Origin: Acidimicrobiia bacterium
GTDB taxonomy: Bacteria; Actinomycetota; Acidimicrobiia; IMCC26256; BP-133
Length of the DNA stretch: 64,000 nt
Assembly (NCBI GenBank): GCA_044867425.1
Contig: JBIOUX010000164.1
Span: 1,367 to 65,366 of the forward strand
Reading direction: 5' to 3'
Position 1 is the stretch's first letter, and each line of letters begins with the position of its first letter. A program made the translations under genes and the position numbers. Below are positions 16,952 through 62,765 of the stretch, one piece after another. Under the pieces are notes generated by a model that was given only the letters and a program-made list of their open reading frames with translations, was not told where the DNA came from and searched no databases.

Positions 16952-16974
16952 ACGAACACCGGGAGGCCTTCACC

Positions 16975-17937: not shown

Positions 17938-17947
17938 TCGTAAGGGC

Positions 17948-19540: not shown

Positions 19541-19543
19541 ATC

Positions 19544-21265: not shown

Positions 21266-21287
21266 CCGTCGGTAATCTGGCCCGTCA

Positions 21288-35200: not shown

Positions 35201-38200
35201 CCCCGGGGGGTCGTGTCCCTGGTCTTGTTGTCGTTGGCGTCGAAGGCCGACGTGATCCGGTTCCCCTTGGGATCGACCATCTCGACGAGGTTGTCGCGGT
35301 CGTCGTAGCGCCACTTGGTGATCCGGTTGTCCCGGTCGGTTTCCTTCACCGTGGGGCCGTAGGGGCTGTACTGGAACGTTTTGGTCTTGGCGGCGGCGTC
35401 GGTGATCCGAGTGGGGGCTCCGGTGCGGTCGTAGGCGCCGTTGGCGGCATCGGCTGTGTCGCCGTAGGTGGTCAGGTCGTCGGCGGGGTAGAGGCCGTCG
35501 TTGGCGGTTTCGCCCCGGGGGCCGTCGACGGTCTTGAGGGCTCCGGAGGTGTAGTAGGCGAAGGTGGTCGTGCGGTCGCCGGTGCACACGCCGGTGCTGC
35601 TGGAACAGGAGGGGGCCTGCGCGGCGCCGTCCGAGCGGTAGCGCTCGATGACGCTGCGGAGGTTGCCGGTGGCCGCGTCGGGGTCGAAGTCCACTACCCG
35701 CTGGGCGGTGTCACCGGAGGCGTAGGTGGCCTTGAGGAGGTCGGCGACCATGTAGCAGTAGCCTTCCTCGGTGACGTTGGCGTTGCCGGGGGCGGGATCG
35801 GTGCAGCCCGACGGGTGGCGCCAGGCGGCGTCGTAGCGGTAGGCGAGCTTGTGGGTCACGGCCACCTTGGGGGCCCCGGTGGGCAGGTCGTTGCGGCCGG
35901 GGTCGTTGGGGGCGGGTTCGGTGATCTCCACCAGGAGACCCAAGTCGTTGTACTTCATCTTCGTCTCGTTGCCGAGCCCGTCCTTCTTGGAGTAGAGGCG
36001 GTTCTCCTCCCAGGAGAACTGGCGGGTCACCGCCCCGGCGCCGAAGCCGGCGTCGATGATGGCGATGATGTTGCCGCCGGCGATGCGCCGGTCTGCCCCC
36101 GTGGGTTGGATCGCCCCCCGGCCCGAGGTGCGGTAGGTGACCTGGTCGGCCGCCGGGGAGGTCACCACCGTGTCCTGCTGGCCGGTGGTCGGATCCGGGG
36201 TGCCGTAGGCGAAGGCCCACGTCTTGGGGGTGGGCTGGGGGCTCTGGCGCCGGTCGGTCAGCGTGGTCATCTGGGCGGAATAGCCGCTGCCCGTGTAGGC
36301 GAAGCGGGTGGTGTTGCCCCGCCCGTCCTTGACCGAGGTGAGCTGCCCGCTGGTGTAGGCGAACTCGGTGGTGCGGGCGGCGTCACTGCCGCTCTGAGCG
36401 TTTTCGTTCACCTTCCACAGGCGGCCGTTGGCGTCGTAGACGAAGTCCACCCACCGCTCGTAAGAGCGGGTGGCGCCGCTCACCGGCTCCACGTCGGTCA
36501 CCCCCTGCAGGGTGGTGATCCGCGACAGGCGCCCTGTCGTGGCGTCCCAGGTCAGGCTGGCCACCACGCCGTTGCGGTTGTGGCTGATCGAGCTCAGGCG
36601 CACCTGGCCGGCGGCCAGGTTGTAGTCGAAGGTCAACGTGTCGCCGCGGCGGTCCCGGATCGAGGTGACCCGCCACGTATTGGTGGTCAGTCCCAGGGCG
36701 GGCTTGACCACCTTGAGGTTCTCCGCCTTGTAGATCACCCCGTCGGGTCGGACGAGCTCGTAGGCCGTGACCACCCCGCCGCTGACGACCTCCCGAACTC
36801 GCAGGCTCACCCCCGGCGGGGAGTCCCACCGTGATCCGATGCCGCCCTTGCGGATGAACCGCTGGGTGGTCCCGTCGCCGTCGGTGAACTCCAGCAGGTA
36901 GCCGGCGATGGTCCCTGCCCCGTCGACCACGGTGGCCGACGCCGCGGTCATCGGCGCGGCCACGTCGAAGTCCTCCAAGGCGCCTTCCACGCCGTCGAGG
37001 CCGGCGTCGAGGTCACTCACCGACAGCGACCAGCCCTGGCTCAGCCCGTTGTCGTGCAGCACGCTCGACTGGCGCTGGGAGTTGTAGACGTGGCGGATCA
37101 CCGTATTCAGCCCCTGGTTGGGGATCGTGGCGTCGTCGAAGCTGGCCGTCAGGTTGCCCGAACGCAGCTGCACGTAGCCCGTTCCCGACGAGCCGAGGGG
37201 GAACGACTTGTAGGGGGCGAACTGCTCCAGGCCGACCTGGTCGGACTGGGCCACCATGTCGGGCAGCAGGGTGGGGGAGAGCGTGACCGGATCGGCGGTG
37301 GAGTCGATGCAGATCGGCCCGTAGACCTGATCGGTGGTGTTCTTGTTGCCGGCCTTGTCGACGGTGGCGACGTGGAACCAGTAGGTGCCGTCGGCGTTGA
37401 CCGGCACCGTGTAGGTGGCGCTGAGCCCGGTGGTGTCCACCGTGTTGTCGGGAGCGGCCGCCTGGTCGTTGTTGAACACCCACGAGTAGCCCAGCACCCC
37501 CGAGGTGACGTCCGCGCCGGCGAGCCAGTTCATGCTGATCGTCCGGATCGAGGTGCACAAGTACTTGGCGTGGCTACTGGTGGTGATGGTCGGCGCGGTC
37601 GGCGGGGTGCTGTCCACCCAGATCCCGTAGTGGCGGGCAGAATCGGACCACCAGCCGGCGTTGTCCTTGGCCCGGGCGTGGACGTACCACTGCCCGTCGG
37701 CCGTGATCGAGGTGCTGTTGGTGTAGCTACCGGTGCTGTTCACCGTCGCGCCGGGGAGCGTGGAGGAGGACTGGTCGACTGATGCCGAGTACCCGGCGAT
37801 GCCGCTGGTGTCGCCCGACGGACCGCTGATGGCGGCGGCAACCGTCCGGCTCGAGTACCACTGCGCGCCCGGGGGGCTCTCCACTCCATGGCTGGAGCTC
37901 GTCAGGGTCGGTGTCCCCGGTTTGACGGTGTCGACGGTGAAGCTGGCCCAGACCGGTCCGCTGCGCTGGCGGAAGTCGTCGGCTTCTGCCGACCAGCTGT
38001 GGTAGCCCTGGCCGAGGGCGCCGGTGGTGACGCAGCCCCGGCCGTTGTTGCCCAGCGTGGCGCTGTTCCCGGACCAGACCTGGGTGCCGCCGCTGTTGTA
38101 GACCCGGAAGACGACGTAGCCGGTGTCGGCGCTGCCGGGGTTGCCCAGGTTGGGGTCCGTCCATGTCGCGCACAGCTGCGGCGTGGTGGTCGTCTGGTAG

Positions 38201-39726
38201 CCGCCGTTGGGGGCGAGGGCGCTGGCGGTGGGGGGCAGGTTGTAGACGACCCGGATGTAGGAGAGGTTGAGGAGGTCCTCGTCGGAGATGAAGGTGAAGA
38301 AGCTGTAGGGCTCCCCGCCGCTGTCGACCACGATGCCCCGGTTGTTCCAGCCGCTCTGGGAGTAGTGGGTCCAGTTGTGCACCCAGGGTTGGATGTCATG
38401 GGCGACGTACCCGCTGGCGCCCGGCCCGTAGCACTTGGAGTAGTTTCCGTCGCACAGCCCGCTCGAGAAGTGGTTCGGGCGGGTGTTGAATGTCACCGTG
38501 TTCGGGTCGTAGGGGTCGGCCACCGGCCAGAGGACGTAGCGGCTGGTGGGGTTCTGCCCCTGGATGTAGCGGTACGCGACCCATTGGCCAGTGAGGATGT
38601 TCTGGTTGTTCGCCGCGCTGAGGTCGTAGAGGAAGTAGCTGTCGTACTCCACGGTGCAGCAGGGGTAGCCGGTGTAGCCGGCCTTGGTGACGAAGCCGCC
38701 GTTGGCGGGGTCGTACTGGCCGCCCAGCGACTCGGCCCAGGTGCCTTGCTGGGTCCAGGTGGGCTGGTTGCTGCGGACGTACGAGTCCCACGAGTCGCCC
38801 CAGTCCTTGGGGAAGCGCACGTCGGGGTCGATCTTGACCGGCCACACGGTGGCCGGGTCGTCCAGCAGGCTCCGGGGGGCCTCCACCTCCACGACCAGAC
38901 CGGCGCCGTCGTCGACCAGGCGCACCGCCACCGGCGCCTGGCGGGGCTGTTGTCCGGTGGCCGGGTCGCCGCTGGAGTCCCAGGCCGCCCCTTGGTTGGG
39001 GATGGACGCGACCCGGATCCCGGCGGCGTCGTAGAAGCCGAAGCTGCCGTCGGCGCCCTGGTGGGCGGCGACGCCGGAGAGCTCGAGCGGGAAACGGAAC
39101 ACGCCGCTGCCCGCTGCGGCTGCGTTGGGCAGGCTGAGGATTTCCTTCACGACGTCGCGGCCCACCGTGTACTCCACGTCGGCGCCGCCCAGCAGACCGG
39201 GGTAGCGGACGGTGTTGCGGTCGGTCGCCGCCGCCACCGATGGCAGCATCCCCTCCAGGGTGAACCCGACGGACCAGGCGTCGGTGCCGACCTGGACCAG
39301 CGGGCCGCCGCCGGAGACGCCGGCGAAGCTCGCCGTGATCGGGCCGGAGCGGTTTCTGAATCGGCCGAGCCCGTCGGAGATGACAGTGGCGTCGAGTGGC
39401 ACCCAGCGCCCGTCCGGCGCCTGCCAGTTGACCGGCCCGGCATAGGCGAACAGCTCCCCGTTGCCGTCGGGGCGGCGGAACACGTTCGTGGTGTCCGTAC
39501 GCTGCAGCAGTTCCAGATCGGGCGGGTCCAGCGGTCCCACGTCCAGCAGGGTGGCTGTCGCCCACGGCCCCGGCGGCGGGGGGAGCGGCGGCGGTTCCTC
39601 CGCTGCTGCCGGACGCACCGGCAGACCGGTGGCCAGCACAGCCACCAGCAGGCTGAGGGTCAGCGCCCGAACGCTTCGCCCGCCCTGCCCCGAGCGCCCG
39701 CGCGTGAGGATCTTCGACAGCTTCAT
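32209..39726 (-). CDS. Rhs/YD-repeat polymorphic toxin, Sec signal peptide, WapA-like architecture
   Basis: 2505 aa.
- Signal peptide: RALTLSLLVAVLATGLPVRPAAA.
- N-terminal DNRLRE-like carbohydrate-binding-type domain (LWPVADPYDPNTVTFNTRP).
- Two Ig-like modules (VDTVKPGTPT, VDSTPPTAPT).
- Dozens of YD repeats (YDANGRL, YDALGRL, YDGEGRQ, YDADGNP).
- Core end: DRQYDPSIRRFTTED...NRYLYAAANPVGYY.
- A 171-aa C-terminal tip containing HELVH. Confidence 0.92.
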   Translation of the reverse strand: MKLSKILTRGRSGQGGRSVRALTLSLLVAVLATGLPVRPAAAEEPPPLPPPPGPWATATLLDVGPLDPPDLELLQRTDTTNVFRRPDGNGELFAYAGPVNWQAPDGRWVPLDATVISDGLGRFRNRSGPITASFAGVSGGGPLVQVGTDAWSVGFTLEGMLPSVAAATDRNTVRYPGLLGGADVEYTVGRDVVKEILSLPNAAAAGSGVFRFPLELSGVAAHQGADGSFGFYDAAGIRVASIPNQGAAWDSSGDPATGQQPRQAPVAVRLVDDGAGLVVEVEAPRSLLDDPATVWPVKIDPDVRFPKDWGDSWDSYVRSNQPTWTQQGTWAESLGGQYDPANGGFVTKAGYTGYPCCTVEYDSYFLYDLSAANNQNILTGQWVAYRYIQGQNPTSRYVLWPVADPYDPNTVTFNTRPNHFSSGLCDGNYSKCYGPGASGYVAHDIQPWVHNWTHYSQSGWNNRGIVVDSGGEPYSFFTFISDEDLLNLSYIRVVYNLPPTASALAPNGGYQTTTTPQLCATWTDPNLGNPGSADTGYVVFRVYNSGGTQVWSGNSATLGNNGRGCVTTGALGQGYHSWSAEADDFRQRSGPVWASFTVDTVKPGTPTLTSSSHGVESPPGAQWYSSRTVAAAISGPSGDTSGIAGYSASVDQSSSTLPGATVNSTGSYTNSTSITADGQWYVHARAKDNAGWWSDSARHYGIWVDSTPPTAPTITTSSHAKYLCTSIRTISMNWLAGADVTSGVLGYSWVFNNDQAAAPDNTVDTTGLSATYTVPVNADGTYWFHVATVDKAGNKNTTDQVYGPICIDSTADPVTLSPTLLPDMVAQSDQVGLEQFAPYKSFPLGSSGTGYVQLRSGNLTASFDDATIPNQGLNTVIRHVYNSQRQSSVLHDNGLSQGWSLSVSDLDAGLDGVEGALEDFDVAAPMTAASATVVDGAGTIAGYLLEFTDGDGTTQRFIRKGGIGSRWDSPPGVSLRVREVVSGGVVTAYELVRPDGVIYKAENLKVVKPALGLTTNTWRVTSIRDRRGDTLTFDYNLAAGQVRLSSISHNRNGVVASLTWDATTGRLSRITTLQGVTDVEPVSGATRSYERWVDFVYDANGRLWKVNENAQSGSDAARTTEFAYTSGQLTSVKDGRGNTTRFAYTGSGYSAQMTTLTDRRQSPQPTPKTWAFAYGTPDPTTGQQDTVVTSPAADQVTYRTSGRGAIQPTGADRRIAGGNIIAIIDAGFGAGAVTRQFSWEENRLYSKKDGLGNETKMKYNDLGLLVEITEPAPNDPGRNDLPTGAPKVAVTHKLAYRYDAAWRHPSGCTDPAPGNANVTEEGYCYMVADLLKATYASGDTAQRVVDFDPDAATGNLRSVIERYRSDGAAQAPSCSSSTGVCTGDRTTTFAYYTSGALKTVDGPRGETANDGLYPADDLTTYGDTADAANGAYDRTGAPTRITDAAAKTKTFQYSPYGPTVKETDRDNRITKWRYDDRDNLVEMVDPKGNRITSAFDANDNKTRDTTPRGQLTPSVADDFTTIWTYDNNDWQTQASWPGANPTDPRRVATVTYADDGAKTAETTPRSSSQINFAYTPNRTLKQIDAPGQTANSIDRAVTDYGYDTAGRVTQVDAPAGNTTNERARTTFTYTPSGAVAQQQVIANATQTQTTLYAYNAHGEPLQTKGPGKVGTFSHTTEQTYSPFAEVTRTRRYKTATTWVDAEVGYDQAGNQVRTAQPTGAGATLESLYRYDALGRLSAQTKDPENPSHTVAYSYDGEGRQTERLDKDGATNVRRVASVYNPDGTLQSEVAKNETAGTTLATCNYADGAGDLTSGYDADGNPLVTRTVSGTTGCTAGGTTLKTQTFAYAAANNWMTSSTQTLRSPDNGTSYSRTQSFAYEADGALDSATWDGRLTSYDHSPAGWLTSMTDWRSRASTNAYFPSGALKTAQRNNNALTGTWDYQRNGAPTSLTWNAGANVLRSHTGVLYDDGGQRTQEAVALRQPGASSTTSGTAKFAYDALNRLTSWVAPFAETSDSSQNTVYTLDDGGNITQEIARTGATAGSGSTRTTATSTFTDGRLTSRVTVYSSLIYEADCEKFWYDALGEETSRYFGYTSVFSCPSNPSATRSTSYDPAGHAAGHDDKTLNQYDINYVYDADGGLIARTDPFESGSAKTTLYFYWGSGDTLAEETDGTGQTMVRYLTDDTGQAVAQESHRTSTGDRNATATWNWLLGDLAGNVGTVCDDTGVVLEQAAFDPYGQPKTGGAGKTTSSSYGRSSLGYQHALTDRTPGSAGTTRALILKDRQYDPSIRRFTTEDSFVAGGLDLALGVDALTGNRYLYAAANPVGYYDDGHAPKGKGKNGCGPGYRKVRGPFGIWEACKPVNSKGPNITDNLARNRLVANSGGVVTECARSKSGQPVFCVQNVKRLPSADPGAGAVTYGHFIFCGGSCDSLLAHELVHVGQWEKYGDKFGIKYLIEAAKRGTGCRNKYEREAYTARGGGGCPEVRGETTEPNYSVNRRYGTSSA

Positions 39727-44570: not shown

Positions 44571-44939
44571 ATGAGCGCTGACCGCAGAACTGTCGTGTTC
44601 GTCGCCGACGAGAATGACGTCCCCGATCTCGTGCGGGCCGCCCAGGTCAGCGCCGAGGCGGTGGACGAGGTCATCGTGGACCGCGGCGAGGAGGCACTCG
44701 ACGAACTCCAGGACGCCGTCTACGACGGCACGGTGGGCCGCATCATCCTGCCCAGTTTGGAGCTCCTCGGGCCCGATCTCATGGCCCAGGAGATGATCCT
44801 GGCCGGCTGGCGGGAGAAGGGGATCGCCGTGTTCTCCTTGAAGGAGCCGGACCTCGGCGACGGCGATCCCGCCCGGCGCGATGCCCGTGGCGTCCTGGGC
44901 GAGATCGACGACTACGGCAAGATCCCCTGGGTGCCCTGA
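44571..44939 (+). CDS. Hypothetical acidic protein (122 aa)
   Basis: ORF from the ATG at 44571. There is a weak resemblance to a resolvase-type alpha/beta fold (GRIILPSLELLGPD) but no catalytic Ser motif. Confidence 0.5.
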   Translation: MSADRRTVVFVADENDVPDLVRAAQVSAEAVDEVIVDRGEEALDELQDAVYDGTVGRIILPSLELLGPDLMAQEMILAGWREKGIAVFSLKEPDLGDGDPARRDARGVLGEIDDYGKIPWVP

Positions 44940-45166
44940 TGACGACGCTCTCCGCTCACATCGACCGCGATGCCTGCAGCGGGACGGGCACCTGCGCCCG
45001 TCTCCTGCCCCAGGTGTTCCGGCTCGTCTCGGAGGGGCAGGAGGAGTTCGCCGAGGTCATCCCCGGAGGGCAGGCCACCGACGATCAGTTGTGGGACGCC
45101 GCCCGGGCCTGTCCGTGGGCGGCCATCATCCTCGAGCGCGAGGATGGTCAGGTTGTGTACCCGTGA
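44939..45166 (+). CDS. Small single-cluster ferredoxin
   Basis: 75 aa with the cluster ligand patterns CSGTGTC and ACP. The ATG overlaps the upstream stop. Confidence 0.8.
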   Translation: MTTLSAHIDRDACSGTGTCARLLPQVFRLVSEGQEEFAEVIPGGQATDDQLWDAARACPWAAIILEREDGQVVYP

Positions 45167-45194
45167 GGCCGACGATCGCGACACAGGAGGGCCC

Positions 45195-45980
45195 ATGAGC
45201 ACGCCGGTATCGACGATCGAGCCGCCCGAGGGCATCTGGTTCGGCAGTGAGCTGGAGCGCCTGGGGGTCGACGGCTACGACGAGGGCGACGACCTGCCCG
45301 ACGAGTACCGCCAGCTCGTCATCCAGGTGGTCATGGTCCAGGCCGACCTGGAGAGTGAGCTCGTCTTCGACTCGAGCCTGCTCCGCTCCCACATCCTGGC
45401 CGCCCCGGACCCCCGGGGGCGGATGCGGATGGCCAAGTTCTTCGCCGAGGAGGTCAACCACGGCTACACGTTCTGGCGCATCGCCAAGGGTCTGGGCGTG
45501 GAGCTCACGCCCCGGTACTTCCGGGAGGCGAAGCGCAAGCGCCAGGAGGTCTTCGAGCACATCGGTTCCGTCCAGGACTGGACCGAGCTGGCCATCGTCA
45601 ACACCCTGACCGACCGGATGGGCGTGTTCGTGTTCAAGGACATGGAGGAGTGCTCCTACCGTCCCTGGGCCTCCGTGTCCGCTTCGGTGGCTCGCGATGA
45701 GGTGGGTCACACCGCCCTCGGCTACTCGAACCTCCGGGACCAGGTCCTCAACCACGGTCGGCTCGAGGAGGCCCAGCGCTGTCTCGACAAGTGGTACCCG
45801 ATGTCGCTGGACATGTTCGGGCGGTCGGAGTCGGAGCGGCAGTGGCGCTACGTGGCCTGGGGGATCAAGCGCTCGGGGAACGAGGAGCTGCGCCGCAACT
45901 ACGTGGCCGAGGTCAACCCCCTGCTCACCCAGCTCGGCCTGGAGCCGCCCGACTACCTCTACAACCGCCATTTCGTCTGA
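45195..45980 (+). CDS. Ferritin-like diiron oxygenase subunit, PaaA/PaaC family (catalytic-type)
   Basis: The RBS AGGAGG lies at 45186-45191. Two ExxH motifs are present (AEEVNHG and RDEVGHT). Confidence 0.75.
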   Translation: MSTPVSTIEPPEGIWFGSELERLGVDGYDEGDDLPDEYRQLVIQVVMVQADLESELVFDSSLLRSHILAAPDPRGRMRMAKFFAEEVNHGYTFWRIAKGLGVELTPRYFREAKRKRQEVFEHIGSVQDWTELAIVNTLTDRMGVFVFKDMEECSYRPWASVSASVARDEVGHTALGYSNLRDQVLNHGRLEEAQRCLDKWYPMSLDMFGRSESERQWRYVAWGIKRSGNEELRRNYVAEVNPLLTQLGLEPPDYLYNRHFV

Positions 45981-46015
45981 GGGCCGGCGGGCGGGGACAT
46001 GATCGGAGACAAGCG

Positions 46016-46213
46016 ATGACCGTCGGATGGCAGGACCTCGACTCCCTGGTGGACGCCCTGCGGGACGCCAACCCCCGGGTCGACCCGAGGGCGCTGGACG
46101 ACCACCAGTTGAAGGAGCTGGCCGAGCAGCTCGAGGGCTTCGACCCCGGGAGCACCACGCCGGGCCCAGGCGATTTCGAGGCCATGCGGGCCATGTGGCA
46201 CTGGGGTGTCTGA
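46016..46213 (+). CDS. IscX/YfhJ-like small acidic protein (65 aa)
   Basis: MTVGWQDLDSLVDALRDANPRVDPRALDDHQLKELAEQLEGFDP...MW is collinear with the remembered E. coli IscX pattern (W-x-D, AL-x-DA-x-P-x-x-DP, LE-x-FD, C-terminal W). Confidence 0.55.
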   Translation: MTVGWQDLDSLVDALRDANPRVDPRALDDHQLKELAEQLEGFDPGSTTPGPGDFEAMRAMWHWGV

Positions 46214-46790
46214 GGAGATGGCGGTGGTGACGAGGGCTGTTCCCGGCATCGACGAGGGCTGGATCCGGGCCGTCCTCTTCGACCACGGCATTGACGACTG
46301 GGTGGATCTGGGGCCGGACCCCCTGCGTCGGCGCTACGCCGGGGACGTCTACGCCCAGCAGGTGGCGGCGACCTACCAGTGCTGGAAGTGGCTGTCCGAC
46401 CGGATGGGGACCGACCTTGACCAGCCGCCCGCTCTGGCCGAGCCCGCCGAGCCGCTGGCCGCGGCGCTGGCCGCCGGCGACTGGACCGAGCTGATGGCCG
46501 TCCTGTTGACGGTGGGCCGGGCCCAGTCGCTGCTCTTCGCCGAGATCGCCCGCCAGGGGGACGACACCACCCGCCGGGGGTTCGACCGCCCGGCCCGGGA
46601 CTGCGCCGGCCATGCCGCCCTGGGGTACCTGGAGCTGCGCCGGGGTGCCTTCACCGACGCCGCCCGGGCCGGCGAGTGCCTCGCCCGGCTGGTGCCGGCC
46701 ACCCGTCGCTGGCTGGAGACCCTCGACCCCGCCGTGGCCGACCGCTGGACAACCGGCGTCCAGCCCCTGCTCCACAGCCTCGGCCTGTAA
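46206..46790 (+). CDS. PaaC-like degenerate partner of the diiron subunit
   Basis: ARDCAGHAALGYLELR aligns with ARDEVGHTALGYSNLR of the 45195 protein, but the Glu ligand is replaced. The protein is helical, and the start overlaps the upstream stop. Confidence 0.55.
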   Translation: MSEEMAVVTRAVPGIDEGWIRAVLFDHGIDDWVDLGPDPLRRRYAGDVYAQQVAATYQCWKWLSDRMGTDLDQPPALAEPAEPLAAALAAGDWTELMAVLLTVGRAQSLLFAEIARQGDDTTRRGFDRPARDCAGHAALGYLELRRGAFTDAARAGECLARLVPATRRWLETLDPAVADRWTTGVQPLLHSLGL

Positions 46791-47425: not shown

Positions 47426-48136
47426 TCAGGCGGTGAGGCCGCGGGCGATGGCGAGGACGCTGCCGGTCGCGGCCAGGGCGAGCGTCGCCGGGCGGACGGC
47501 GGCGGCCGGCAGCCGGCCCGCGAGCAGGACTCCGGCGACGACACCGGCGGCGAGGGCAGCCACGATCCCGAGGGGGAGGCGGGCCGGCCACCCGAGCGTG
47601 GCCAGAGTCACCAGGTTGAGGCCGAGGAAGAAGAGCTGGATCGTCGGGCGGGCCCGCTCGGACGGCCAGCCGGCGTTGACGGCGAACCACACCACGGGCG
47701 GGCCGCTGATCCCGGCGGTGACGTTCATGCCGCCGCTGACCGCGCCCACCGCCACCGTGCCCGCCCGGCCAGTCACGCTGCGGAACTCACGGCCGCGGGC
47801 CAGGGCCGCCACCCCCGTCAGACAGATCAGGCCGGCGACGACCGTGAGGGGCCCGGGCCGGGAGTGGCGGACGACGTATCCCACCGGAACGGTGGCCACC
47901 ATGGCCGGCACCAGCAGCAGCCCGGCAGCCCGGAAATCGATCCCGCGGTGCTCGCGCGCCAGCAGGGCCACGTTGATGACCACCGACAGGACCATGTTCA
48001 GCTGCACGCCGGTGGGCGCCCGGTAGGCGGCGATCAGGAACGGCGCGCACACCAGGGAGAACCCGAAGCCGGTGGCGAACTGGGCCACGGCCCCGAGGGC
48101 CACGGCCACTCCCGCCAGCAGAGCCGGCACCGTCAC
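47426..48136 (-). CDS. TauE/SafE-family anion exporter membrane protein
   Basis: The GTG start at 48134-48136 gives VTVPALLAGVAVALGAVAQFATGFGFS. The protein is polytopic. Confidence 0.75.
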   Translation of the reverse strand: MTVPALLAGVAVALGAVAQFATGFGFSLVCAPFLIAAYRAPTGVQLNMVLSVVINVALLAREHRGIDFRAAGLLLVPAMVATVPVGYVVRHSRPGPLTVVAGLICLTGVAALARGREFRSVTGRAGTVAVGAVSGGMNVTAGISGPPVVWFAVNAGWPSERARPTIQLFFLGLNLVTLATLGWPARLPLGIVAALAAGVVAGVLLAGRLPAAAVRPATLALAATGSVLAIARGLTA

Positions 48137-48387
48137 ACCCGCCCATCGAGATCCAGCTGACGTCCTTCGTCGCGCATGCGCTCGCTGGCGACCGCCAGGA
48201 TGAAGGCGCGGCCAGAGCGAGAGCCCAGGGTGACGGCCGTGGCAGCATCGGCTTGGAGGTGCACGTGCTGCTGGCCCATCGGCTGCAATCCGTGGGAGAG
48301 GACGTCGGGCAAGGAGCTCCAAGCCGTGGCGTGATACAGGACCGCCGGCGGCGGGACGGGCACCAGGCCCTCCTCAGGGATGGTCAT
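48133..48387 (-). CDS. RNA 2'-phosphotransferase (KptA/Tpt1) catalytic-domain-only protein, 84 aa
   Basis: LYHATAWSSLPDVLSHGLQPMGQQHVHLQADAATAVTLGSRSGRAFIL resembles the Tpt1 C-terminal ADP-ribosyltransferase-like lobe. The N-terminal winged-helix lobe is absent. The stop overlaps the TauE start (GTGA). Confidence 0.55.
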   Translation of the reverse strand: MTIPEEGLVPVPPPAVLYHATAWSSLPDVLSHGLQPMGQQHVHLQADAATAVTLGSRSGRAFILAVASERMRDEGRQLDLDGRV

Positions 48388-51251: not shown

Positions 51252-52796
51252 CTAGCTGCGGGCGCAGACGAACCGGTCGTTGCCCAGCGGGGCCACGATG
51301 GCGCCCTGGGCGATCTTGATGGGCACCATGCAGCGGTTGACGCGGCCGTGGGCACCCTGGTTGAAGGTGATGGGGGGGACCAGGCCGCCCAGCGTCTCGT
51401 CCCGCAGCGAGTAGAGAGCTTCGATGATGTCGGCGGGCCCGGGGTTGGGTTTGTCGCCAAACACGTCGGCCAGGCGCTCCACGAGCTTGCCCTGCACCCA
51501 GGCGGTGGAGCCGTAGCCGGCCAGGCGGGCGCCGGGGACGAAGCGGGCCACCGCCTCCCGGTAGGGCTTGAGCAGCGGCGAGCTGCCGTAGGGAGCGGTG
51601 GCGGAGAAGCCGAGGATCCCCACCGCGTCCTCGCCGGCGTTGAGCAACACGTCGTTGTTGACGGTGTAGCTGCCGGCCAGCACCGGGTTGTAGCCCTGGC
51701 GCTTGGCCGAGCGGGCGATGCGCACGATGCTGGCCTCGTCGACGGTGGTGATGATGGCGTCGGCGCCGGCGTTGCGGGCGGCCAGCACCTCGCCGGTGTA
51801 GTCGGGCTGGGCGATGGACACCTGCGCCTCGAAGACCACCTCGACGCCGTACTGGCCGGCGAACTCCCGCACCCGCTTGGCCTGGGCGCCACAGGAGGAG
51901 GCCTCCCGGCAGTAGAGGGTGGCGACCTTGCGGGCGTCCGACTGGACCACGATGTTGTGGAGGAGGCCGTGGCCGAGCGCCTCATCCGCCCCCATCTGGG
52001 GGTTGAACACCATGGGGCTGACATCCTCGACCTCGTTGCCGCCCGGCCCCCCGATCATGGGCACCTGCACCTGGTCCAGGTACTGGGTGACGGCGGCGGT
52101 GGTGATGACGAGGTAGGTGCCGACAAAGGCGATGACCTTGTCCTGCTCCACCATCTTGCGGGCCAGGGTGGCGGCCCGGGCCGGGTCGCCGCCGTCGTCG
52201 CCGAAGACCACCCGCACCGGATGGCCCCGCAGGCCGCCCCGGGCGTTGACGTCGGCCGCCCATGCCTTGGTGGCGGCCACGATGGACTGGGTGGCGGCGC
52301 CGATGACCCCGCTGGCCGTGCCCAGCGACCCGAAGACGAGTGGCGACCGTTCGCCCGCCACCGGTGCCGCCGGCGTCGCCGGCCCCGGGACGGGGCCGGC
52401 GGCACTGGCCGGTCCCGGCCGGGAGGCAGCGGCCGAGGACGTGGCGGGCGCCGCTCCCAACGGGGTGGTCCCGGACGCGGGGTCGCCGGCGGTTCCTCCG
52501 GCTGCCGCCGTGCTCCTGCCCGGGCCGCCGGTAGCCGGTCCCGAGGCCGTCAGTGCGCCCGAAGGTGCGGTGACGACTCCGGCGTTCGAGCCGGAACCGG
52601 TGGCCCCCGCGCCGGCGGAGGTCGGATCGGCGGCGGCGGAGGCGAGCGCCGGGGAAGCATCGGGACCGGGCGCGGTCAGCGAGCCGTTCACCTGCTGGAG
52701 GGCGGCTCGCTCCAACCGGGAGCCACAGCCGGACCCGGCCACCAGCGCCAGCAGGCAGGCGGCGCCGGAACGACGAAGCGCGGACCCCCGGCTCAT
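51252..52796 (-). CDS. ABC transporter substrate-binding lipoprotein (Leu/Ile/Val-type), copy 2 (more divergent)
   Basis: The start MSRGSALRRSGAACLLALVAGSGCGS carries a lipobox and overlaps the upstream stop (ATGA). A long Ala/Pro/Ser/Gly linker is followed by a LivJ-like core. Confidence 0.85.
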   Translation of the reverse strand: MSRGSALRRSGAACLLALVAGSGCGSRLERAALQQVNGSLTAPGPDASPALASAAADPTSAGAGATGSGSNAGVVTAPSGALTASGPATGGPGRSTAAAGGTAGDPASGTTPLGAAPATSSAAASRPGPASAAGPVPGPATPAAPVAGERSPLVFGSLGTASGVIGAATQSIVAATKAWAADVNARGGLRGHPVRVVFGDDGGDPARAATLARKMVEQDKVIAFVGTYLVITTAAVTQYLDQVQVPMIGGPGGNEVEDVSPMVFNPQMGADEALGHGLLHNIVVQSDARKVATLYCREASSCGAQAKRVREFAGQYGVEVVFEAQVSIAQPDYTGEVLAARNAGADAIITTVDEASIVRIARSAKRQGYNPVLAGSYTVNNDVLLNAGEDAVGILGFSATAPYGSSPLLKPYREAVARFVPGARLAGYGSTAWVQGKLVERLADVFGDKPNPGPADIIEALYSLRDETLGGLVPPITFNQGAHGRVNRCMVPIKIAQGAIVAPLGNDRFVCARS

Positions 52797-54418
52797 CCCT
52801 CGGCGCGGAGGATCTCCGCGATCCGGTCGCGCAAGATCCGTTTGAGGATCTTGCCCGTGGGGTTGAGGGGCATGGCGTCGATGGCCTCCAGGCGTTCCGG
52901 GCACTTGATCCGGGCCAGCCCGGCGGCCGTCAGGTGCTGCTCGACCTCGGCCAGATCGGGGAGGCTCTGGCCCTCCCGGAGCACGAGGAAGGCGCACATG
53001 CGCTCCCCGAGGCGCTCGTCGGGCATGCCCACGCAGGCCGCCTCGGCCACCGCCGGGTGCGTGAGGAGGGCGGCCTCCGTCTCGGCCGGGCTGATGTTGT
53101 AGCCGCCCCGGATGATGATGTCCTTCTTGCGGCCGGCGATGCGCAGGTACCCGTCGGCGTCGATGACCCCGAGGTCGCCGGTTCGGACCCAGCCGTCGCC
53201 GAAGCGGTAGCGGGCGTCGAGCTCGGGGCTGTTGAAGTAGCGCAAGGGGGTCATGGGGCCCCGGGAGCAGACCTCGCCCACCTCACCCCCAGGGAGCTCG
53301 GAACCGTCGTCGTCGAGGATGCGGATGTGGCTGAGGGCCGGCGAGGGCCGCCCCACGGTGGCGGCGATCTTCTCCGGCGGGTCATCCCAGCCGGTCATGC
53401 AGATGGCCCCGTCGGAGCAGCCGTAGCCGTTGACGAACCGCGCTCCGAACACCTCGATGGTGCGCCGGACCCGGTCCTCGCTCATGGCCGCCCCGAAGCT
53501 GCCCACCGCCCGCAGCGAAGACAGGTCGACGCCCTCGGGCCTGGCCTCGAGCATCATGCCCAGCATGGTGGGCACTCCGAAGAGGTGCGTGATCCGCTCC
53601 CGCTCGATCAGCTTGAACATTCCCGCCGGATCGAACATCGAGGTGACCACCAGGGTGACGCCGAAGCGGGAAATGGCGGCGTAGGTGCCGAGGGCCCCGA
53701 AGCCGGTGGAGAGGGGCGGCAGGAGGAGGAAGCGGGTGTCGTTGTCGGGCCGGATGGCGCCCAGGACGTTGGCGATCCCGCCGCCGATCCCGTCGTGGGA
53801 GTAGAGCACCATCTTGGGCTCGCCCTCTGTCCCCGAGGTGACGATGATGCGGGCCGGGTCGGCGGGGCGCACCTTGACCGGTGGGCGGGTGCCCGGGTCG
53901 GGGCCGGCCAGGACCTCGTCGAGGGAGTCGCAGCCCGGGGCGGGATCGCCCAGGACGGCGAGGTGGCGCAGGGCGGGGAGCTCGCCCTGGAGCTCGACCA
54001 TCATCTGCGCGAAGTCGAAGTCCCGGAACCGCCGGGCGAACAGGCAGGCTACCGCGCCGGAGCGGGTGAGGAGGGATCGGACCTCCCGGTGCCGGTAGAG
54101 GATGGGGTAGGCCAGGCAGGTGGCGCCGACGCTGGCCACGGCCAGGTCGGCGGCGCACGCATGATGGGTGTTGGCGAACTGGATGGCGACCACGTCACCG
54201 GCGCCGACGCCGGCTTGGTGGAGGTAGGCGCCGATGCGGCGCGCCTCGGCCGCCAGCTCGGTGTAGGTCACGGCGCCGTCGTCGTCGATGAGCGCGGTCT
54301 TGTCGGGATGGCGGTCCACCTGCCGGGAGAAGAGCGTCATGAGGTCGACACCGGGACAGTGCCCGTCCGCCACCCACTGAGCCCGTAACTCGGCCGGTAC
54401 GAGATCCGTGGTCTCCAT
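52793..54418 (-). CDS. AMP-dependent acyl-CoA synthetase/ligase
   Basis: TSGTEGEPKMV, GYLRIAGRKKDIIIRGGYNI and the C-terminal PTGKILK are present. The start was chosen at METTDLV (54416-54418), after a G-rich RBS. Confidence 0.88.
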   Translation of the reverse strand: METTDLVPAELRAQWVADGHCPGVDLMTLFSRQVDRHPDKTALIDDDGAVTYTELAAEARRIGAYLHQAGVGAGDVVAIQFANTHHACAADLAVASVGATCLAYPILYRHREVRSLLTRSGAVACLFARRFRDFDFAQMMVELQGELPALRHLAVLGDPAPGCDSLDEVLAGPDPGTRPPVKVRPADPARIIVTSGTEGEPKMVLYSHDGIGGGIANVLGAIRPDNDTRFLLLPPLSTGFGALGTYAAISRFGVTLVVTSMFDPAGMFKLIERERITHLFGVPTMLGMMLEARPEGVDLSSLRAVGSFGAAMSEDRVRRTIEVFGARFVNGYGCSDGAICMTGWDDPPEKIAATVGRPSPALSHIRILDDDGSELPGGEVGEVCSRGPMTPLRYFNSPELDARYRFGDGWVRTGDLGVIDADGYLRIAGRKKDIIIRGGYNISPAETEAALLTHPAVAEAACVGMPDERLGERMCAFLVLREGQSLPDLAEVEQHLTAAGLARIKCPERLEAIDAMPLNPTGKILKRILRDRIAEILRAEG

Positions 54419-54456
54419 GTTGCCCCCCGACCCCCCGACATTTGACCCCAAAATTC

Positions 54457-54480
54457 CGAATGAGCAGTCAGTCGGTCAGT
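54457..54480. promoter_or_regulatory. Operator-like motif CGAATGA-GCAG-TCAGTC(GGTCAGT), with a 4-nt reiteration relative to the 61015 site
   Basis: It lies between the P450 stop (54511) and the acyl-CoA synthetase start (54418). Confidence 0.5.
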
Positions 54481-54510
54481 TTAGGGCACCGGCCGGCCGT
54501 CTGCCACCCG

Positions 54511-55704
54511 TCACCACACCACGGGGAGGTGCTTGACCCACCGGGTGATGACCCCGCTCATCACCACGGCCTCCGGATCCTCGAGGTGGAACGTGGGGAG
54601 GCGGTTCAGGATCTCTTCCAGGGCGACCCGCATCTCGAGCCGGGCCAGATGGGCGCCGATGCAGCGGTGGGGTCCCGACCCGAAGGCGAGGTGCCGGTTG
54701 TTGGGGCGGTCGTAGACGAATTCGTCGGGGTCGGCGAAGGCATCTGGGTCGCGGTTGGCGGAGGCCCAGGACAGGATCACCTTTTCACCTTCCGCCAGGG
54801 CCGTGCCGGCGAAGGTGGTGGGGTGGGTGATGGTGCGGGAGAAGTACTGGACGGGGGCGTCGAGGCGCAGCGACTCCTCCATGGCGCTGAACCGCAGGGC
54901 GGGGTCGTCACGCAGCCGGTCCTGGATCTCCGGGTGACGGGCCAGTTGCAGCAGCAGGGAGCCGATGGCGCCGGTGGTCGTCTCGTGCCCGGCCACCACC
55001 AGCAGGAAGGTGATGCCGAGGACCTCCTCCTCGGTCAGCTCCCGCCCCTCGTAGCGCAGCTGGACGATCTTGGTGAGGAGGTCGTCGATGGGGTGCTCCC
55101 GCCGGTCCTCCAGGAGGTTGTAGAGGTAGCTGAAGAGCTGGAGGGCCTGTTCGGCGTTGACCTGGCTGTCCTCGGCGGCGGCGGCCTGGAGCATCATCTC
55201 GGTCAACTCCCGGTAGTACGACCAGTCTTCTTCGGGCAGACCGATCATGTGGGCGATGACCATGGGGGGCGCCGGCACGGCCAGCTCCTGGGCCAGGTCG
55301 GCCCGGCGGTGGCCGGCGAAGTTGTCGATGAGCCCACCGACGATGGAGCGGATGGCCGGCTCCAGCCCCGCGCAGTACTGGGGCGAGAACCAGGCCTGGA
55401 TCAGGTGGCGCCACTTGGTGTGCTCCGGCGGGTCGACCTCGAGGGGGATGGCGTTCAGGGGGTTCCCGAAGTCGGGCAGGCTGACACCCTCGGCCGAGCT
55501 GAACGCCCCGGTGTCGTGCGCCGCCTCGCAGACGTCGGCGAAGCGGGAGATCACATGGAAGCCCCCGAATCGGCTGCCGTGACCGATCGGACACTTCTCG
55601 CGCATGACGGCGTAGGCCGGGTACGGGTCATGCACCACCCGCGGGTCGGTGGGGTCGAAGTCCTGGGCCAGTTCGACCGGGTCGTAGCGCTCGGTGGGTG
55701 TCAT
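54511..55704 (-). CDS. Cytochrome P450
   Basis: The heme-thiolate loop is FGSGPHRCIGAHLA and the I-helix is AGHETT. The start MTPTERYD overlaps the upstream ACAD stop. Confidence 0.92.
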   Translation of the reverse strand: MTPTERYDPVELAQDFDPTDPRVVHDPYPAYAVMREKCPIGHGSRFGGFHVISRFADVCEAAHDTGAFSSAEGVSLPDFGNPLNAIPLEVDPPEHTKWRHLIQAWFSPQYCAGLEPAIRSIVGGLIDNFAGHRRADLAQELAVPAPPMVIAHMIGLPEEDWSYYRELTEMMLQAAAAEDSQVNAEQALQLFSYLYNLLEDRREHPIDDLLTKIVQLRYEGRELTEEEVLGITFLLVVAGHETTTGAIGSLLLQLARHPEIQDRLRDDPALRFSAMEESLRLDAPVQYFSRTITHPTTFAGTALAEGEKVILSWASANRDPDAFADPDEFVYDRPNNRHLAFGSGPHRCIGAHLARLEMRVALEEILNRLPTFHLEDPEAVVMSGVITRWVKHLPVVW

Positions 55705-56846
55705 CTCGTCCCCCTTGACTTCTTGGCCAGCAACCGGCTGAGGATGACCCGCTGGATCTGGTTGGTGCCCTCGTAGATCTGGAGCACCTTGGCGTCGCGC
55801 ATCATCCGCTCGACGGGGTGGTCGGCCAGGTAGCCGTGGCCCCCCAGGCACTGCACGGCGTCCGTCGCCACTTTCATGGCCGTATCGGTGCACAACGTCT
55901 TGGCCATGGCCGAGAGCTCGCCCGCCCGCGGGCCGCCGCGGTCGACCTCGGCCGCCGCCGCGTAGAGAAGCTCGCGGGCGGCCTCGATCTGGATGGCCAT
56001 GTCGGCGATCATGAACGACACGCCCTGGAACTCGTAGACGGGCCTCCCGAACGCCTTGCGCTCCAGGGTGTAGGCGAGGGCGTACTCCATGGCTGCGGTG
56101 GCCAGGCCGACGCCCTGGGCGGCCACGTTGGGGCGGGCGAAGACGAACATGGCCATGAGCGCCGAAAAGCCGTGGTCGCCGCCGATCAGGTTCTCGGCCG
56201 GGACCTCGACGTTGTCGAAGGACAGGCCGACGATGGTGGAGCCCCGGAGGCCCATCTTCCGCTCCCGCCCGGTGACGGTCACCCCCGGGGACTCCCGGCC
56301 GTCGATGAGCAGGAGACGCACGCCCGCCGGGCCTGAGCCCGGGTCGAGCGTCACCAGTGTCGTGTAGAAGTCGGACACGTCCCCGTTGGTGATGAAGCAC
56401 TTCGTCCCGTTGACCACGTAGGAGCCGCCCTTGTCCACCGCGTGGGTGCGGATCGCCCCGAGGTCGCTGCCCGCCTCGGGCTCGGTGCTGGCCAGGCAGG
56501 ACACCCGCTCCTCCAGGCGGGGGAAGAGCCGGTCCTGCTGCTCGGCGGTGCCGGCGAAGCGCAGGGTGAGGACGGCCCCGAAGTGCTGGAACAGCTGGCA
56601 GGCGGCAGTCGAGACCTTGGCGATCTCCTCGGCCAGGATGACCCACTCGGTGGAGCCGGCCTCGGCGCCGCCGTAGGTGGCGGGGGTGAGGATCGACAGC
56701 CAGCCCTGGTCCCGGTAGAGCTGGAGGAGGTCGTGGGGGAACTCGTCGTCGGCTTCCATGCGGGCCCCGATGGGGGCGATCCGCTCCGTCGCCACCCGCC
56801 GCACGGTGTCGGCGAACAGCTCCTGGTCGGGCGTCAGGGTCGGCAT
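55701..56846 (-). CDS. Acyl-CoA dehydrogenase (canonical YEGT catalytic Glu present)
   Basis: 381 aa with QIYEGTNQIQ near the C-terminus. It is a close paralogue of 59859-61007. Confidence 0.92.
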   Translation of the reverse strand: MPTLTPDQELFADTVRRVATERIAPIGARMEADDEFPHDLLQLYRDQGWLSILTPATYGGAEAGSTEWVILAEEIAKVSTAACQLFQHFGAVLTLRFAGTAEQQDRLFPRLEERVSCLASTEPEAGSDLGAIRTHAVDKGGSYVVNGTKCFITNGDVSDFYTTLVTLDPGSGPAGVRLLLIDGRESPGVTVTGRERKMGLRGSTIVGLSFDNVEVPAENLIGGDHGFSALMAMFVFARPNVAAQGVGLATAAMEYALAYTLERKAFGRPVYEFQGVSFMIADMAIQIEAARELLYAAAAEVDRGGPRAGELSAMAKTLCTDTAMKVATDAVQCLGGHGYLADHPVERMMRDAKVLQIYEGTNQIQRVILSRLLAKKSRGTR

Positions 56847-57997
56847 CAGCCGGGGGTCACGCCGAAGAGGTCGCGGGCGATGAGCATGCGCTGGGTGTTG
56901 GCCGGGCCCTCACCCAGCTCGGTGGCGAGGATGTCGCGCAGGCGAACCTGGGCGGGATGCTCCCGGCTGTAGGCCACATGCCCGATGGTCAGGATCGACT
57001 CGTGGCACACCCAGGCGGCCAGCCGGGGGATCCACGACTTGGCCATGGCCGCCTCCTGGCGGAAGTCCTCCGCCCGGTCGGCCTTCCACAGCGCCCGCTG
57101 CGCCAGCAGCCGGGCTGCCTCGAGTTGCGTGACGGCGTCGGCCAGCGGGAAGGCGATCCCCTGGCGGGTGGCCAGCGGCGCCCCGAAGGTCACCCGGTCC
57201 TTGGCCCAGGCCACGGCGTCGTCCACGGCTGCCCGGGCCACGCCGAGGCACACGCAGCAGACGAGCACCTTGGAGGAGGCCAGCGAGCCGAGGGCGCTGC
57301 GCAGCCCGCTGCCGGGCTCGCCGAGGAGGGCGTCGGCGGGGACCTCGACGTCGTCGAAGGTCACCACCGCCCGTCCCAGGGGCCGGCTGCCCATGTCGTC
57401 GAAGGGCGCCACCGTGACCCCGGGGGCGTCCATCGGAACGAAGAACATCGCCGGGCCTGACATCTCGGGGGCACCCCGGGCCCCGGGCTCGGTGCGGGCA
57501 AGCACGAAGGCCACCGGGGACTCGGAGAAGCTCATGGACGACTTCTCGCCTCGAAGGACGAATCCACCGTCCGTGGGTTTGGCCGTGGCCGCCAGGGCGG
57601 CGATGTCGGATCCGGTGCCGGGCTCGGTGAAGGCGAGGCCGAAGGTCGTGTCGCCGGTCGTCGCCCGGGGCAACCACTGCGCCTTCAAGCGGTCGGAACC
57701 CAGGCGCCACAACAGCTTCCCGGCTGTCCCGGCCTGGATGATCATAAGGGCGGTGGTGTAGTCGGCCCGGCCCAGTTCCTCGCACACCAGACCGGCGGCC
57801 AGCTCGCCGGCGCCCTGCCCGCCCGCCTCGGCGGGGACGTGGACCCCCAGGAGCCCCGAGGTGGCGAGCAGCTTCAGCGTCTCCCAGGGGAAGACGCCGG
57901 CCCGGTCCCGCTCCACGTATCCGGGGGCGAGCTCGCGAGCGACCCGGCGGGCCACGGCGACGAGCTCTTCGTGTTCGGGCAGATGGGCGAAGTCCAT
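56846..57997 (-). CDS. Acyl-CoA dehydrogenase
   Basis: 383 aa ACAD-fold sequence. Its stop overlaps the start of the downstream ACAD by 1 nt. Confidence 0.9.
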   Translation of the reverse strand: MDFAHLPEHEELVAVARRVARELAPGYVERDRAGVFPWETLKLLATSGLLGVHVPAEAGGQGAGELAAGLVCEELGRADYTTALMIIQAGTAGKLLWRLGSDRLKAQWLPRATTGDTTFGLAFTEPGTGSDIAALAATAKPTDGGFVLRGEKSSMSFSESPVAFVLARTEPGARGAPEMSGPAMFFVPMDAPGVTVAPFDDMGSRPLGRAVVTFDDVEVPADALLGEPGSGLRSALGSLASSKVLVCCVCLGVARAAVDDAVAWAKDRVTFGAPLATRQGIAFPLADAVTQLEAARLLAQRALWKADRAEDFRQEAAMAKSWIPRLAAWVCHESILTIGHVAYSREHPAQVRLRDILATELGEGPANTQRMLIARDLFGVTPG

Positions 57998-58015
57998 TCG
58001 GCAGGTCTCCTCGGG

Positions 58016-59856: not shown

Positions 59857-59858
59857 GC

Positions 59859-61007: not shown

Positions 61008-61014
61008 GGCGCCT

Positions 61015-61032
61015 CCGAATGAGCAGTCGGTC
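61015..61032. promoter_or_regulatory. Operator-like motif CGAATGA-GCAG-TCGGTCA
   Basis: It lies between the TetR stop (61059) and the ACAD start (61007). On the coding strand it abuts the GGAGG ribosome-binding site. Confidence 0.5.
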
Positions 61033-61058
61033 AGTTTCCGGGCCAGACTCTAACGGTG

Positions 61059-62571: not shown

Positions 62572-62688
62572 GCCGGCGAACGGACGGGCCCGGGAATTTC
62601 CCGGGGTTCGGGCGCTACGGCGGAGCGATCCCCAGCGCATCTTTACGCGTACAGAAAAAGTGGTTGACATTCTCATGGTGGGCGCGGT

Positions 62689-62706
62689 TGACTGAGGATT
62701 CAGTCA
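62689..62706. promoter_or_regulatory. Perfect 7-4-7 palindrome TGACTGA-GGAT-TCAGTCA
   Basis: It lies in the divergent region between the methyltransferase/TetR genes (-) and the SBP copy 3 gene (+). Confidence 0.55.
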
Positions 62707-62765
62707 GCCACGGGAACTCTCCACCACGTGTCCCTGTCGCCGCCGCGACGCGCCCGTTCGAAAGG

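Follow-up and report, generated by a model that had tools for sequence, protein, structure and literature searches.

An IscX homologue encoded within a predicted PaaA-like diiron oxygenase module of uncultured Acidimicrobiia

Why should a homologue of IscX (YfhJ), a small protein of Fe-S cluster assembly, be encoded among the genes of a diiron oxygenase? This question is raised by a 64,000-nt stretch of DNA (the window; contig JBIOUX010000164.1, assembly GCA_044867425.1, positions 1,367-65,366) from an uncultured Acidimicrobiia bacterium. A first-pass annotation had described four genes at 44939-46790, namely those of a 75-residue ferredoxin, a ferritin-like protein resembling PaaA, a 65-residue IscX-like protein and a PaaC-like paralogue of the diiron subunit. 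All four open reading frames (ORFs) were found at these positions on the + strand, and the four descriptions stood. However, the list was incomplete: a fifth gene, encoding an acidic protein of 122 residues, lies directly upstream, and the module comprises five tightly packed + strand genes (44571-46790; Table 1). Also missing from that account were the CoA-thioester catabolic context seen in relatives and the ATP-binding cassette (ABC) transporter genes that run into the module. We propose that the five genes are the operon core of a soluble, ferredoxin-dependent diiron CoA-thioester oxygenase of the PaaA/BoxB family, in which the IscX homologue serves as a docking or effector accessory, a reading that we hold with belief and doubt in about equal measure.

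Table 1. Genes of the oxygenase module, followed by the two adjoining transporter genes (positions in the window)
Feature	Coordinates	Strand	Basis or remark
122-residue acidic alpha/beta protein, fifth module component	44571..44939	+	
75-residue single-cluster ferredoxin, [3Fe-4S]-type motif	44939..45166	+	Fer4_13, Fer4_15
261-residue PaaA-family ferritin-like protein, predicted catalytic diiron subunit	45195..45980	+	PF05138
65-residue acidic IscX-fold protein	46016..46213	+	PF04384, TIGR03412, AlphaFold2 model
194-residue ligand-deficient PaaC-like paralogue	46206 (GTG)..46790, alternative start ATG 46218	+	hhalign
Liv-type ABC permease, fused, 640 residues	41937..43859	+	PF02653 E 7e-44; context, not core
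ABC transporter ATPase, 234 residues	43856..44560	+	PF00005 E 2.8e-31; context, not core

Is the 65-residue protein truly related to IscX? It matched PF04384 with 24.7 bits (E 3.7e-5; gathering score 25) and the TIGR03412 IscX model with 27.7 bits (E 3.4e-6; cut-off 40.4); E-values from local hidden Markov model (HMM) searches were computed on small ORF sets and should be treated as bit scores. Several members of its subfamily carry precomputed PF04384 matches. A profile of the subfamily aligned without gaps to residues 1-61 of E. coli IscX (29.3 bits), and the E. coli protein, used as a query against all ORFs of the fetched loci of relatives (numbered L001 onward), recovered the member at L089 at E 7e-8. 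An AlphaFold2 model of the protein, with a predicted local distance difference test (pLDDT) score of 87, was matched by Foldseek to the IscX structures 1uj8 and 2bzt, with template modelling (TM) scores of 0.84 and 0.79, respectively, a probability of 1.0 and root-mean-square deviations of 2.0-2.2 Å, and all non-IscX matches fell below TM 0.4. On this model, the protein has the three-helix fold of IscX. Since sequence profiles, the reciprocal profile match and the fold agree, we conclude that it is a true but divergent IscX homologue. The first-pass annotation would have withdrawn this assignment had profile searches returned no significant IscX similarity or had the gene not been kept beside the oxygenase genes of relatives; the similarity was found, and adjacency is kept across several rearranged gene orders, as described below.

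The subfamily is small. A word-indexed search yielded 13 relatives of the IscX-like protein, and HMMER, run exhaustively over 1.84 billion cluster representatives, gave 32 matches at E<=1e-3, only four of them at <=1e-10, the tail of this list consisting largely of canonical-looking IscX sequences. The ORF has a third-position G+C content (GC3) of 0.94 and, in comparisons with relatives as distant as about 50% identity, a ratio of nonsynonymous to synonymous substitutions (dN/dS) of 0.13-0.37; together these values mark it as a real gene. A chance ORF in a GC-rich genome is ruled out by GC3, dN/dS and conservation.

How closely is this gene tied to the oxygenase? Every subfamily member on a sufficiently long contig adjoins a PaaA-like gene (the short contig of L100 does not reach one), and the linkage occurs in at least seven gene orders from Acidimicrobiia, Streptosporangiaceae and other metagenomic actinobacteria. 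Writing A, X, C and Fdx for the PaaA-like, IscX-like, PaaC-like and ferredoxin genes, the window clade (L001-3, L007-9 and L011-14) has the order 122aa-Fdx-A-X-C, and L094-97 have TetR / 122aa-MaoC-hotdog-Fdx-A-X-C with two divergent acyl-CoA dehydrogenases. The order is TetR-P450-A-X-C-Fdx-thiolase in L004-6, PadR-X-C-A-TetR-122aa-SDR in the Streptosporangiaceae loci L092/93, and A-CoA_binding_2-110aa-X-PaaK-like ligase in L089/90 and L015 of Acidimicrobiales. The remaining loci are L098 (A-X-Fdx-CoA_binding_2-ECH-ligase-SBP), L100 (110aa-like-X-Fdx-122aa-like) and L101, where A-X is followed by a fusion of C to the 122-residue protein and then by TetR. The IscX-like gene thus stays with the PaaA-like gene even where the partner, the 122-residue protein gene or the ferredoxin gene is absent.

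A tally of distinct PaaA-like sequences over all fetched loci, ranked by identity to the window protein and scored for genes within 3.5 kb, describes the limits of this association. At >=63% identity, all 15 sequences have both the IscX-like gene and the partner, and the PaaC-like gene follows the IscX-like gene in every one of these relatives. At 45-55% identity, the IscX-like gene occurs in three of six and the partner in none, one contig being too short to judge. None of the 72 sequences at <=40% identity, which come from Acidobacteria, Burkholderiales (including the cultured Polaromonas aquatica and Lacisediminimonas profundi) and Rokubacteria, has an IscX-like gene of its own; the lone positive in this group comes from L089, whose second PaaA-like gene is close to the IscX-like gene of the first.

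Could the adjacency nevertheless be without functional meaning, with the 65-residue ORF a passenger or an annotation artefact? The Pfam score is just under the gathering threshold and the data come entirely from metagenome assemblies, both of which would fit such a view. However, purifying selection, coding-type GC3, a confident IscX fold and conservation through multiple independent rearrangements across orders of Actinomycetota all oppose it; the selection and conservation data effectively refute it, and we give it almost no credence.

Several minor observations arose from the same comparison. Loci L019-L088 (for example, L026 7959-8693 and L033 7794-8693) carry single PaaA-like genes, encoding about 240 residues, that make up a large sister clade (<=40% identity) in Burkholderiales, Rokubacteria/Methylomirabilota and Acidobacteria. 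None has an IscX-like, partner or 122-residue protein gene; in the few loci inspected (L026, L033), neighbours look, on crude gene calls, like MaoC/ECH and Liv-type ABC genes, and this clade, too, seems not to have been characterised. Where lineages lack the PaaC-like partner, the start of the IscX-like gene is overlapped by a gene of about 110 codons that has no annotation (L089 4745-5086; L015 ~9280-9606), with a similar gene at L100 3-296. The product of the L089 and L015 genes had no match to the partner HMM and is not a truncated PaaC-like protein, and a candidate fusion of this family to an IscX-like domain (P0067, 143 residues) gave a weak signal of 12-13 bits and was not used as evidence. 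Finally, the metagenomic protein P0056 (113 residues) joins IscX-like residues 1-33 to the PaaC-like sequence from residue 55 onward and is probably a deletion or an assembly artefact.

What, then, is the enzyme beside which the IscX homologue is encoded? The 261-residue protein belongs to the PaaA_PaaC superfamily (PF05138, E 5.7e-20, 72 bits against a cut-off of 28.5) and contains the motifs EEVNH (residues 85-89) and DEVGH (168-172), the two ExxH motifs noted by the first-pass annotation. Numbered from Met1, residues Glu53, Glu86, His89, Asp140, Glu169 and His172 show no variation across 21 aligned homologues, and in profile-to-PDB alignment they coincide with E42, E72, H75, D126, E155 and H158, the diiron ligands of E. 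coli PaaA (PMC4498308). As all six ligands are present, the protein is predicted to be the catalytic diiron subunit. Its nearest PDB matches are PaaA (E 2e-23), the PaaA-like 4mud (E 6e-20) and BoxB (E 1e-8). It is not a PaaA orthologue, as it reaches only 68.7 bits with TIGR02156 against an equivalog cut-off of 280, and equivalog scores likewise rule out true PaaC or BoxB orthology. We also noted a basic loop, EAKRKRQE (residues 111-118; window 45525-45548), that is conserved in the PaaA-like clade having the PaaC-like partner and is replaced by non-basic sequence in other PaaA-like clades; the acidic ferredoxin, the IscX-like protein or the 122-residue protein (all pI 4.1-4.3) may dock there.

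The 194-residue protein is more divergent. Alone or as an alignment, it had no Pfam, NCBIfam or PDB sequence match, and none to TIGR02158 (PaaC). An iterated HMM search started from this partner drifted into the PaaA-like family, and a partner-only model was therefore rebuilt from an alignment of 13 sequences (A2). Comparison of A2 with the PaaA-like alignment by hhalign gave a probability of 98.9% (E 2.6e-17), which rules out an unrelated helical protein. The second motif is degenerate (DCAGH, residues 132-136), as the first-pass annotation had recognized, and the ligand positions are occupied by Gln52, Ala55, Gly104 and Cys133 (Cys, Leu or Phe in relatives), leaving only His136. Because the ligand set is lost, this protein is predicted to be an iron-free paralogue of the catalytic subunit, related to it as PaaC is to PaaA.

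That annotation had further remarked that equivalents of PaaB, PaaD and PaaE are missing. None of these families was found among the genes called within about 8 kb of the modules of near-identical relatives or among 20 further window proteins, and no downstream paa genes (paaGZJFHK) adjoin the module. In PaaABC, the small PaaB sits in a cleft at the PaaA/PaaC interface (PMC4498308). With this bridging subunit absent, the IscX-like protein might replace it as a purely structural small subunit that bridges or stabilizes the oligomer; its gene lies between A and C, or directly before C, in most gene orders, and its conserved aromatic C-terminus is interface-like. However, the gene is also found in lineages that have no PaaC-like partner (L089, L015, L098) and is missing from some members of the PaaA-like clade, and the protein has no similarity to PaaB. 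A purely structural role therefore seems to us rather improbable.

More can be learned from the conserved residues of the IscX-like protein (pI 4.26). Its subfamily shares with canonical IscX a core of W5, D7, L15, P20, D23-P24, L/F-E55-A and W61, and differs in its signature, which comprises a DPR motif, Arg58 and a C-terminal E-x2-R-x2-W-x-W-[GE] that replaces the canonical acidic tail. Conserved in this subfamily alone are Arg25, Arg58 and the C-terminal W-x-W, a pattern that suggests a protein interface rather than a set of metal ligands. This pattern bears on the principal alternative to an effector, namely that the protein is an iron chaperone or maturation factor which delivers or retains Fe(II) for the PaaA-like diiron site in a PaaD-like role; the first-pass annotation had named iron donor and effector as the two conceivable functions. 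Canonical IscX does bind iron, although with low affinity (PMC5801593), and PaaD, which itself originates from Fe-S biogenesis (DUF59/SufT-like), is dispensable in vitro yet required in vivo and has been suggested to insert iron into PaaA or PaaE (PMC4498308). Furthermore, no PaaD gene lies near the module, the IscX-like protein is acidic, and its gene is dispensable in some clade members, as expected of an accessory maturation factor. However, the subfamily has no conserved His, Cys or carboxylate cluster of its own: the invariant acidic residues Asp7, Asp23 and Glu55 are those of all IscX proteins, whereas those peculiar to the subfamily are Arg and Trp. Production in stoichiometric rather than catalytic amounts is also suggested by translational coupling and strict adjacency, although this argument is weak. 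Overall, we regard the iron chaperone as unlikely. A docking or effector role is favoured because the IscX-like gene tracks the PaaA-like gene and the residues specific to its product are Arg and Trp-x-Trp.

The 75-residue protein matched Fer4_13 (E 1.2e-10) and Fer4_15 (E 2.3e-9), in agreement with its earlier description as a ferredoxin. Its cluster motif, read from the sequence, is C13-S-G-T16-G-T-C19...C58-P59; with a single Fer4_13/15 domain and a non-Cys residue (Thr) at the variable position, it is a member of the CXX?XXC(X)nCP class, its cluster type being predicted from this motif. Examined members of the class carry [3Fe-4S] clusters and serve actinobacterial P450s (PMC6237146). The window protein shares motif class, size and acidity with ferredoxins of the M. 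marinum Fdx2 (CXXTXXC) type. However, whereas the actinobacterial [3Fe-4S] ferredoxins have been described as P450 partners, the conserved neighbour here is a diiron oxygenase, of which the ferredoxin is presumed to be the electron donor; the P450 gene in the L004 cluster recalls the P450-partner ferredoxins.

Might the IscX-like protein instead serve the ferredoxin encoded nearby, for instance by helping to build or repair its Fe-S cluster, in an echo of the canonical fdx-iscX adjacency? In E. coli, fdx immediately precedes iscX, and the Isc ferredoxin is of the [2Fe-2S] type. The iscX gene is the last of the E. coli isc operon, and fdx is in the same gene list (PMC5801593). A ferredoxin gene directly follows the IscX-like gene in L098 and L100, and the two are co-located in one operon in the window clade, L004 and L094-97. 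However, in L089/L015 and L092/L101 the IscX-like and PaaA-like genes stay together without a ferredoxin gene nearby, and the window ferredoxin, with its [3Fe-4S]-type motif, is unrelated to the Isc ferredoxin. Nor does the neighbourhood contain a cysteine desulfurase or scaffold gene: IscS, IscU, HscBA and an Isc-type fdx were all absent from the relatives' neighbourhoods inspected. Service to the ferredoxin is thus, in our estimate, very improbable.

The fifth module component, the 122-residue protein (pI 4.1), ends in an invariant tail, YGKIPWVP, where model confidence is low. Acidimicrobiia-type metagenomes encode more than 140 homologues of it, and its gene stands beside the module in the window clade, L011/L012, L092/93 and L094-97. 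Its AlphaFold2 model (pLDDT 76) has a generic alpha/beta fold of the resolvase-N/RecA-like kind (best TM 0.55), and 29 of 32 family members show a weak Pfam Resolvase-N match (best E 0.002). The most informative locus is L101 (2230-3147), where the protein is fused to the C-terminus of the PaaC-like partner, the partner HMM matching residues 3-163 (E 7.6e-34) and the 122-residue protein HMM residues 222-305 (E 2e-26), with the same C-terminal tail. This fusion is Rosetta-stone evidence that the 122-residue protein works on the PaaC-like subunit. Two other identities were considered and rejected: an active serine recombinase, as the Resolvase-N similarity is weak, inspection by eye shows no evident catalytic Ser motif at the N-terminus and the fold is generic; and a divergent CoA_binding_2 protein, as there is no similarity to the CoA_binding_2 proteins of L089 or L098.

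On what substrate might such an enzyme act? Recurrent neighbours in relatives include pairs of acyl-CoA dehydrogenases, MaoC/hot-dog pairs, crotonase (ECH) hydratases, AMP-forming CoA ligases, CoA_binding_2, thiolase and TetR/PadR regulators. PaaA and BoxB, the nearest solved relatives of the catalytic subunit, both act on CoA thioesters (PMC4498308). Because of these neighbours and this shared chemistry, the enzyme is most likely a ferredoxin-dependent oxygenase acting on a CoA thioester. In the window itself, a stretch 6-15 kb downstream of the module (52793-61706 on the - strand and 62562-64000 on the + strand) encodes three acyl-CoA dehydrogenases, an acyl-CoA ligase, a Rieske oxygenase resembling KshA (PF19298 + Rieske) and a TetR regulator, followed by a Peripla_BP_6 binding protein; the stretch looks like a catabolic cluster for steroid-like or lipid CoA thioesters.

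How might the five proteins work together? From these findings, we infer that the catalytic 261-residue subunit and its iron-free 194-residue partner would form a PaaAC-like heterodimer, on whose PaaC-like subunit the acidic 122-residue protein would dock. Electrons would be carried by the CxxTxxC ferredoxin from an unlinked reductase, in replacement of PaaE. The IscX homologue would have been co-opted from Fe-S cluster assembly to serve as a small accessory dedicated to the catalytic subunit, binding the oxygenase through its conserved Arg residues, its WxW C-terminus and its acidic surface. Lacking a cofactor, it could act as a control on the redox state of the diiron site or on access by the ferredoxin, which is equally acidic. 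Two analogies are at hand for such a role. The effectors MmoB and T4moD compete with a reductase or ferredoxin. Canonical IscX competes with CyaY, and apparently with ferredoxin, for one basic patch on IscS; the IscS surface that it binds is also used by CyaY (PMC5801593, PMC2854127).

Several observations weigh against an oxygenase with an IscX-type docking or effector accessory. First, some members of the same PaaA-like clade (L016, L018 and the P0031 contig) lack the IscX-like gene, which shows that the protein is an accessory, neither required in every member nor indispensable for the fold. Second, the arrangements in L089 and L092 have no nearby ferredoxin gene, which fits ferredoxin gating less well. 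Third, not only the ferredoxin, IscX-like and 122-residue proteins but all five proteins are acidic, which weakens a simple argument from charge complementarity. Fourth, the IscX-like protein has no sequence or fold similarity to effectors of the MmoB/DmpM type, giving no Pfam match of that kind and only IscX in Foldseek. Finally, no CoA-metabolic genes lie directly beside the module in the window, and all module members come from metagenomes or metagenome-assembled genomes. That no cultured representative of the family occurs among the genomes scanned may be the reason why it has hitherto gone unstudied.

The system most similar to the module is PaaABC(D)E of E. coli, Pseudomonas and Klebsiella. 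Both have a PF05138 catalytic subunit with the same six ligands (E, ExxH, D, ExxH), an iron-free homologous partner, an accessory from an Fe-S-assembly family (PaaD in the one, the IscX-like protein in the other) and, in relatives of the window module, a CoA-thioester catabolic context. However, neither A nor C is orthologous to its counterpart by the TIGR02156 and TIGR02158 results given above. The window module also lacks PaaB, PaaD, PaaE and adjacent paaGZJFHK; it has a separate [3Fe-4S]-type ferredoxin instead of the fused FNR/[2Fe-2S] reductase, and its IscX-fold and 122-residue proteins are additional. Similarly, BoxAB, the benzoyl-CoA 2,3-epoxidase, shares the diiron superfamily (3per, E 1e-8), a CoA-thioester substrate and an Fe-S electron source, but BoxB is about 470 residues long, has no PaaC-like partner and uses BoxA (2x[4Fe-4S] + FAD), and the match to TIGR03225 is only 14.6 bits.

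With IscX itself, the 65-residue protein has fold, length and acidity in common, but it falls below the equivalog cut-off, bears the signature described above in place of the acidic tail, and is encoded beside a diiron oxygenase, whereas canonical, proteobacterial IscX is encoded with iscSUA-hscBA-fdx. The phylogenetic occurrence of IscX has been tied to that of IscS (PMC5801593), and with no isc genes nearby the IscX-like protein departs from this co-occurrence. The literature searched described no link between IscX and a PaaA-type enzyme or diiron oxygenase. To MmoB, DmpM and T4moD the likeness is a functional analogy only, that of a small cofactor-less protein in a diiron oxygenase operon with a ferredoxin or reductase; as there is no relation in sequence or fold, an effector role for the IscX-like protein is hypothetical.

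What is new here is a predicted diiron CoA-thioester oxygenase of the PaaA/BoxB type with an accessory set that includes a recruited IscX homologue. The locus offers a second, independent genomic context for the IscX fold and thus a testable handle on its function. We entertain, with slightly more doubt than belief, the broader view that IscX-fold proteins are a previously unrecognized type of accessory subunit of diiron oxygenases, be it as effector, gatekeeper or iron-handling factor. If this is true, the fold would not be specific to IscS but would act as a general adaptor for enzymes that depend on iron or ferredoxin, and the five-protein set (catalytic subunit, iron-free partner, IscX-like protein, 122-residue protein and [3Fe-4S] ferredoxin) would represent a new soluble diiron CoA-thioester oxygenase architecture. 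To diiron enzymology, the module contributes a predicted system of the PaaA/BoxB type whose means of electron delivery and accessory proteins differ, a [3Fe-4S] ferredoxin, an IscX-like protein and an acidic 122-residue protein standing in place of PaaB, PaaD and PaaE. Its presence also suggests that soil Acidimicrobiia and other actinobacteria carry out a CoA-thioester oxidation step that has yet to be characterised.

The layout of the module is that of an operon. The stop codon of the 122-residue protein gene overlaps the ferredoxin ATG (TGATG), a gap of 28 nt with an AGGAGG motif separates the ferredoxin and PaaA-like genes, and 35 nt separate the latter from the IscX-like gene, whose stop at 46213 overlaps or abuts the PaaC-like start. 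The region has about 69-72% G+C with no compositional break, and a scan of 43.5-47.5 kb for promoters and terminators found nothing above shuffled expectation. Because the transporter genes end only 10 nt before the start of the 122-residue protein gene, the Liv-type ABC permease and ATPase are probably co-transcribed with the oxygenase module, and they may be the uptake system for its substrate. A Liv-type permease gene lies upstream of the module in L007 and L008, as in the window; in L098, L026 and L033, too, PaaA-like genes are flanked by genes for Liv-type binding proteins or permeases.

On its 3' side, the module faces convergent GNAT and TauE genes on the opposite strand. Overlapping the longest reading of the TauE ORF is an ORF of 84 residues (48133-48387, - strand) that matches only positions 99-164 of the 177-position model of the RNA 2'-phosphotransferase Tpt1/KptA; the called gene is only 105 residues long in relatives (L001), and it is either a truncated domain or the result of a mis-called start. 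Elsewhere in the window, a crude codon-position caller reported atypical frames with first-position G+C above GC3 at 13615-21310, probably by choosing the wrong frame for large genes, and a single ORF of 2505 residues extends over 32209-39726 on the - strand.

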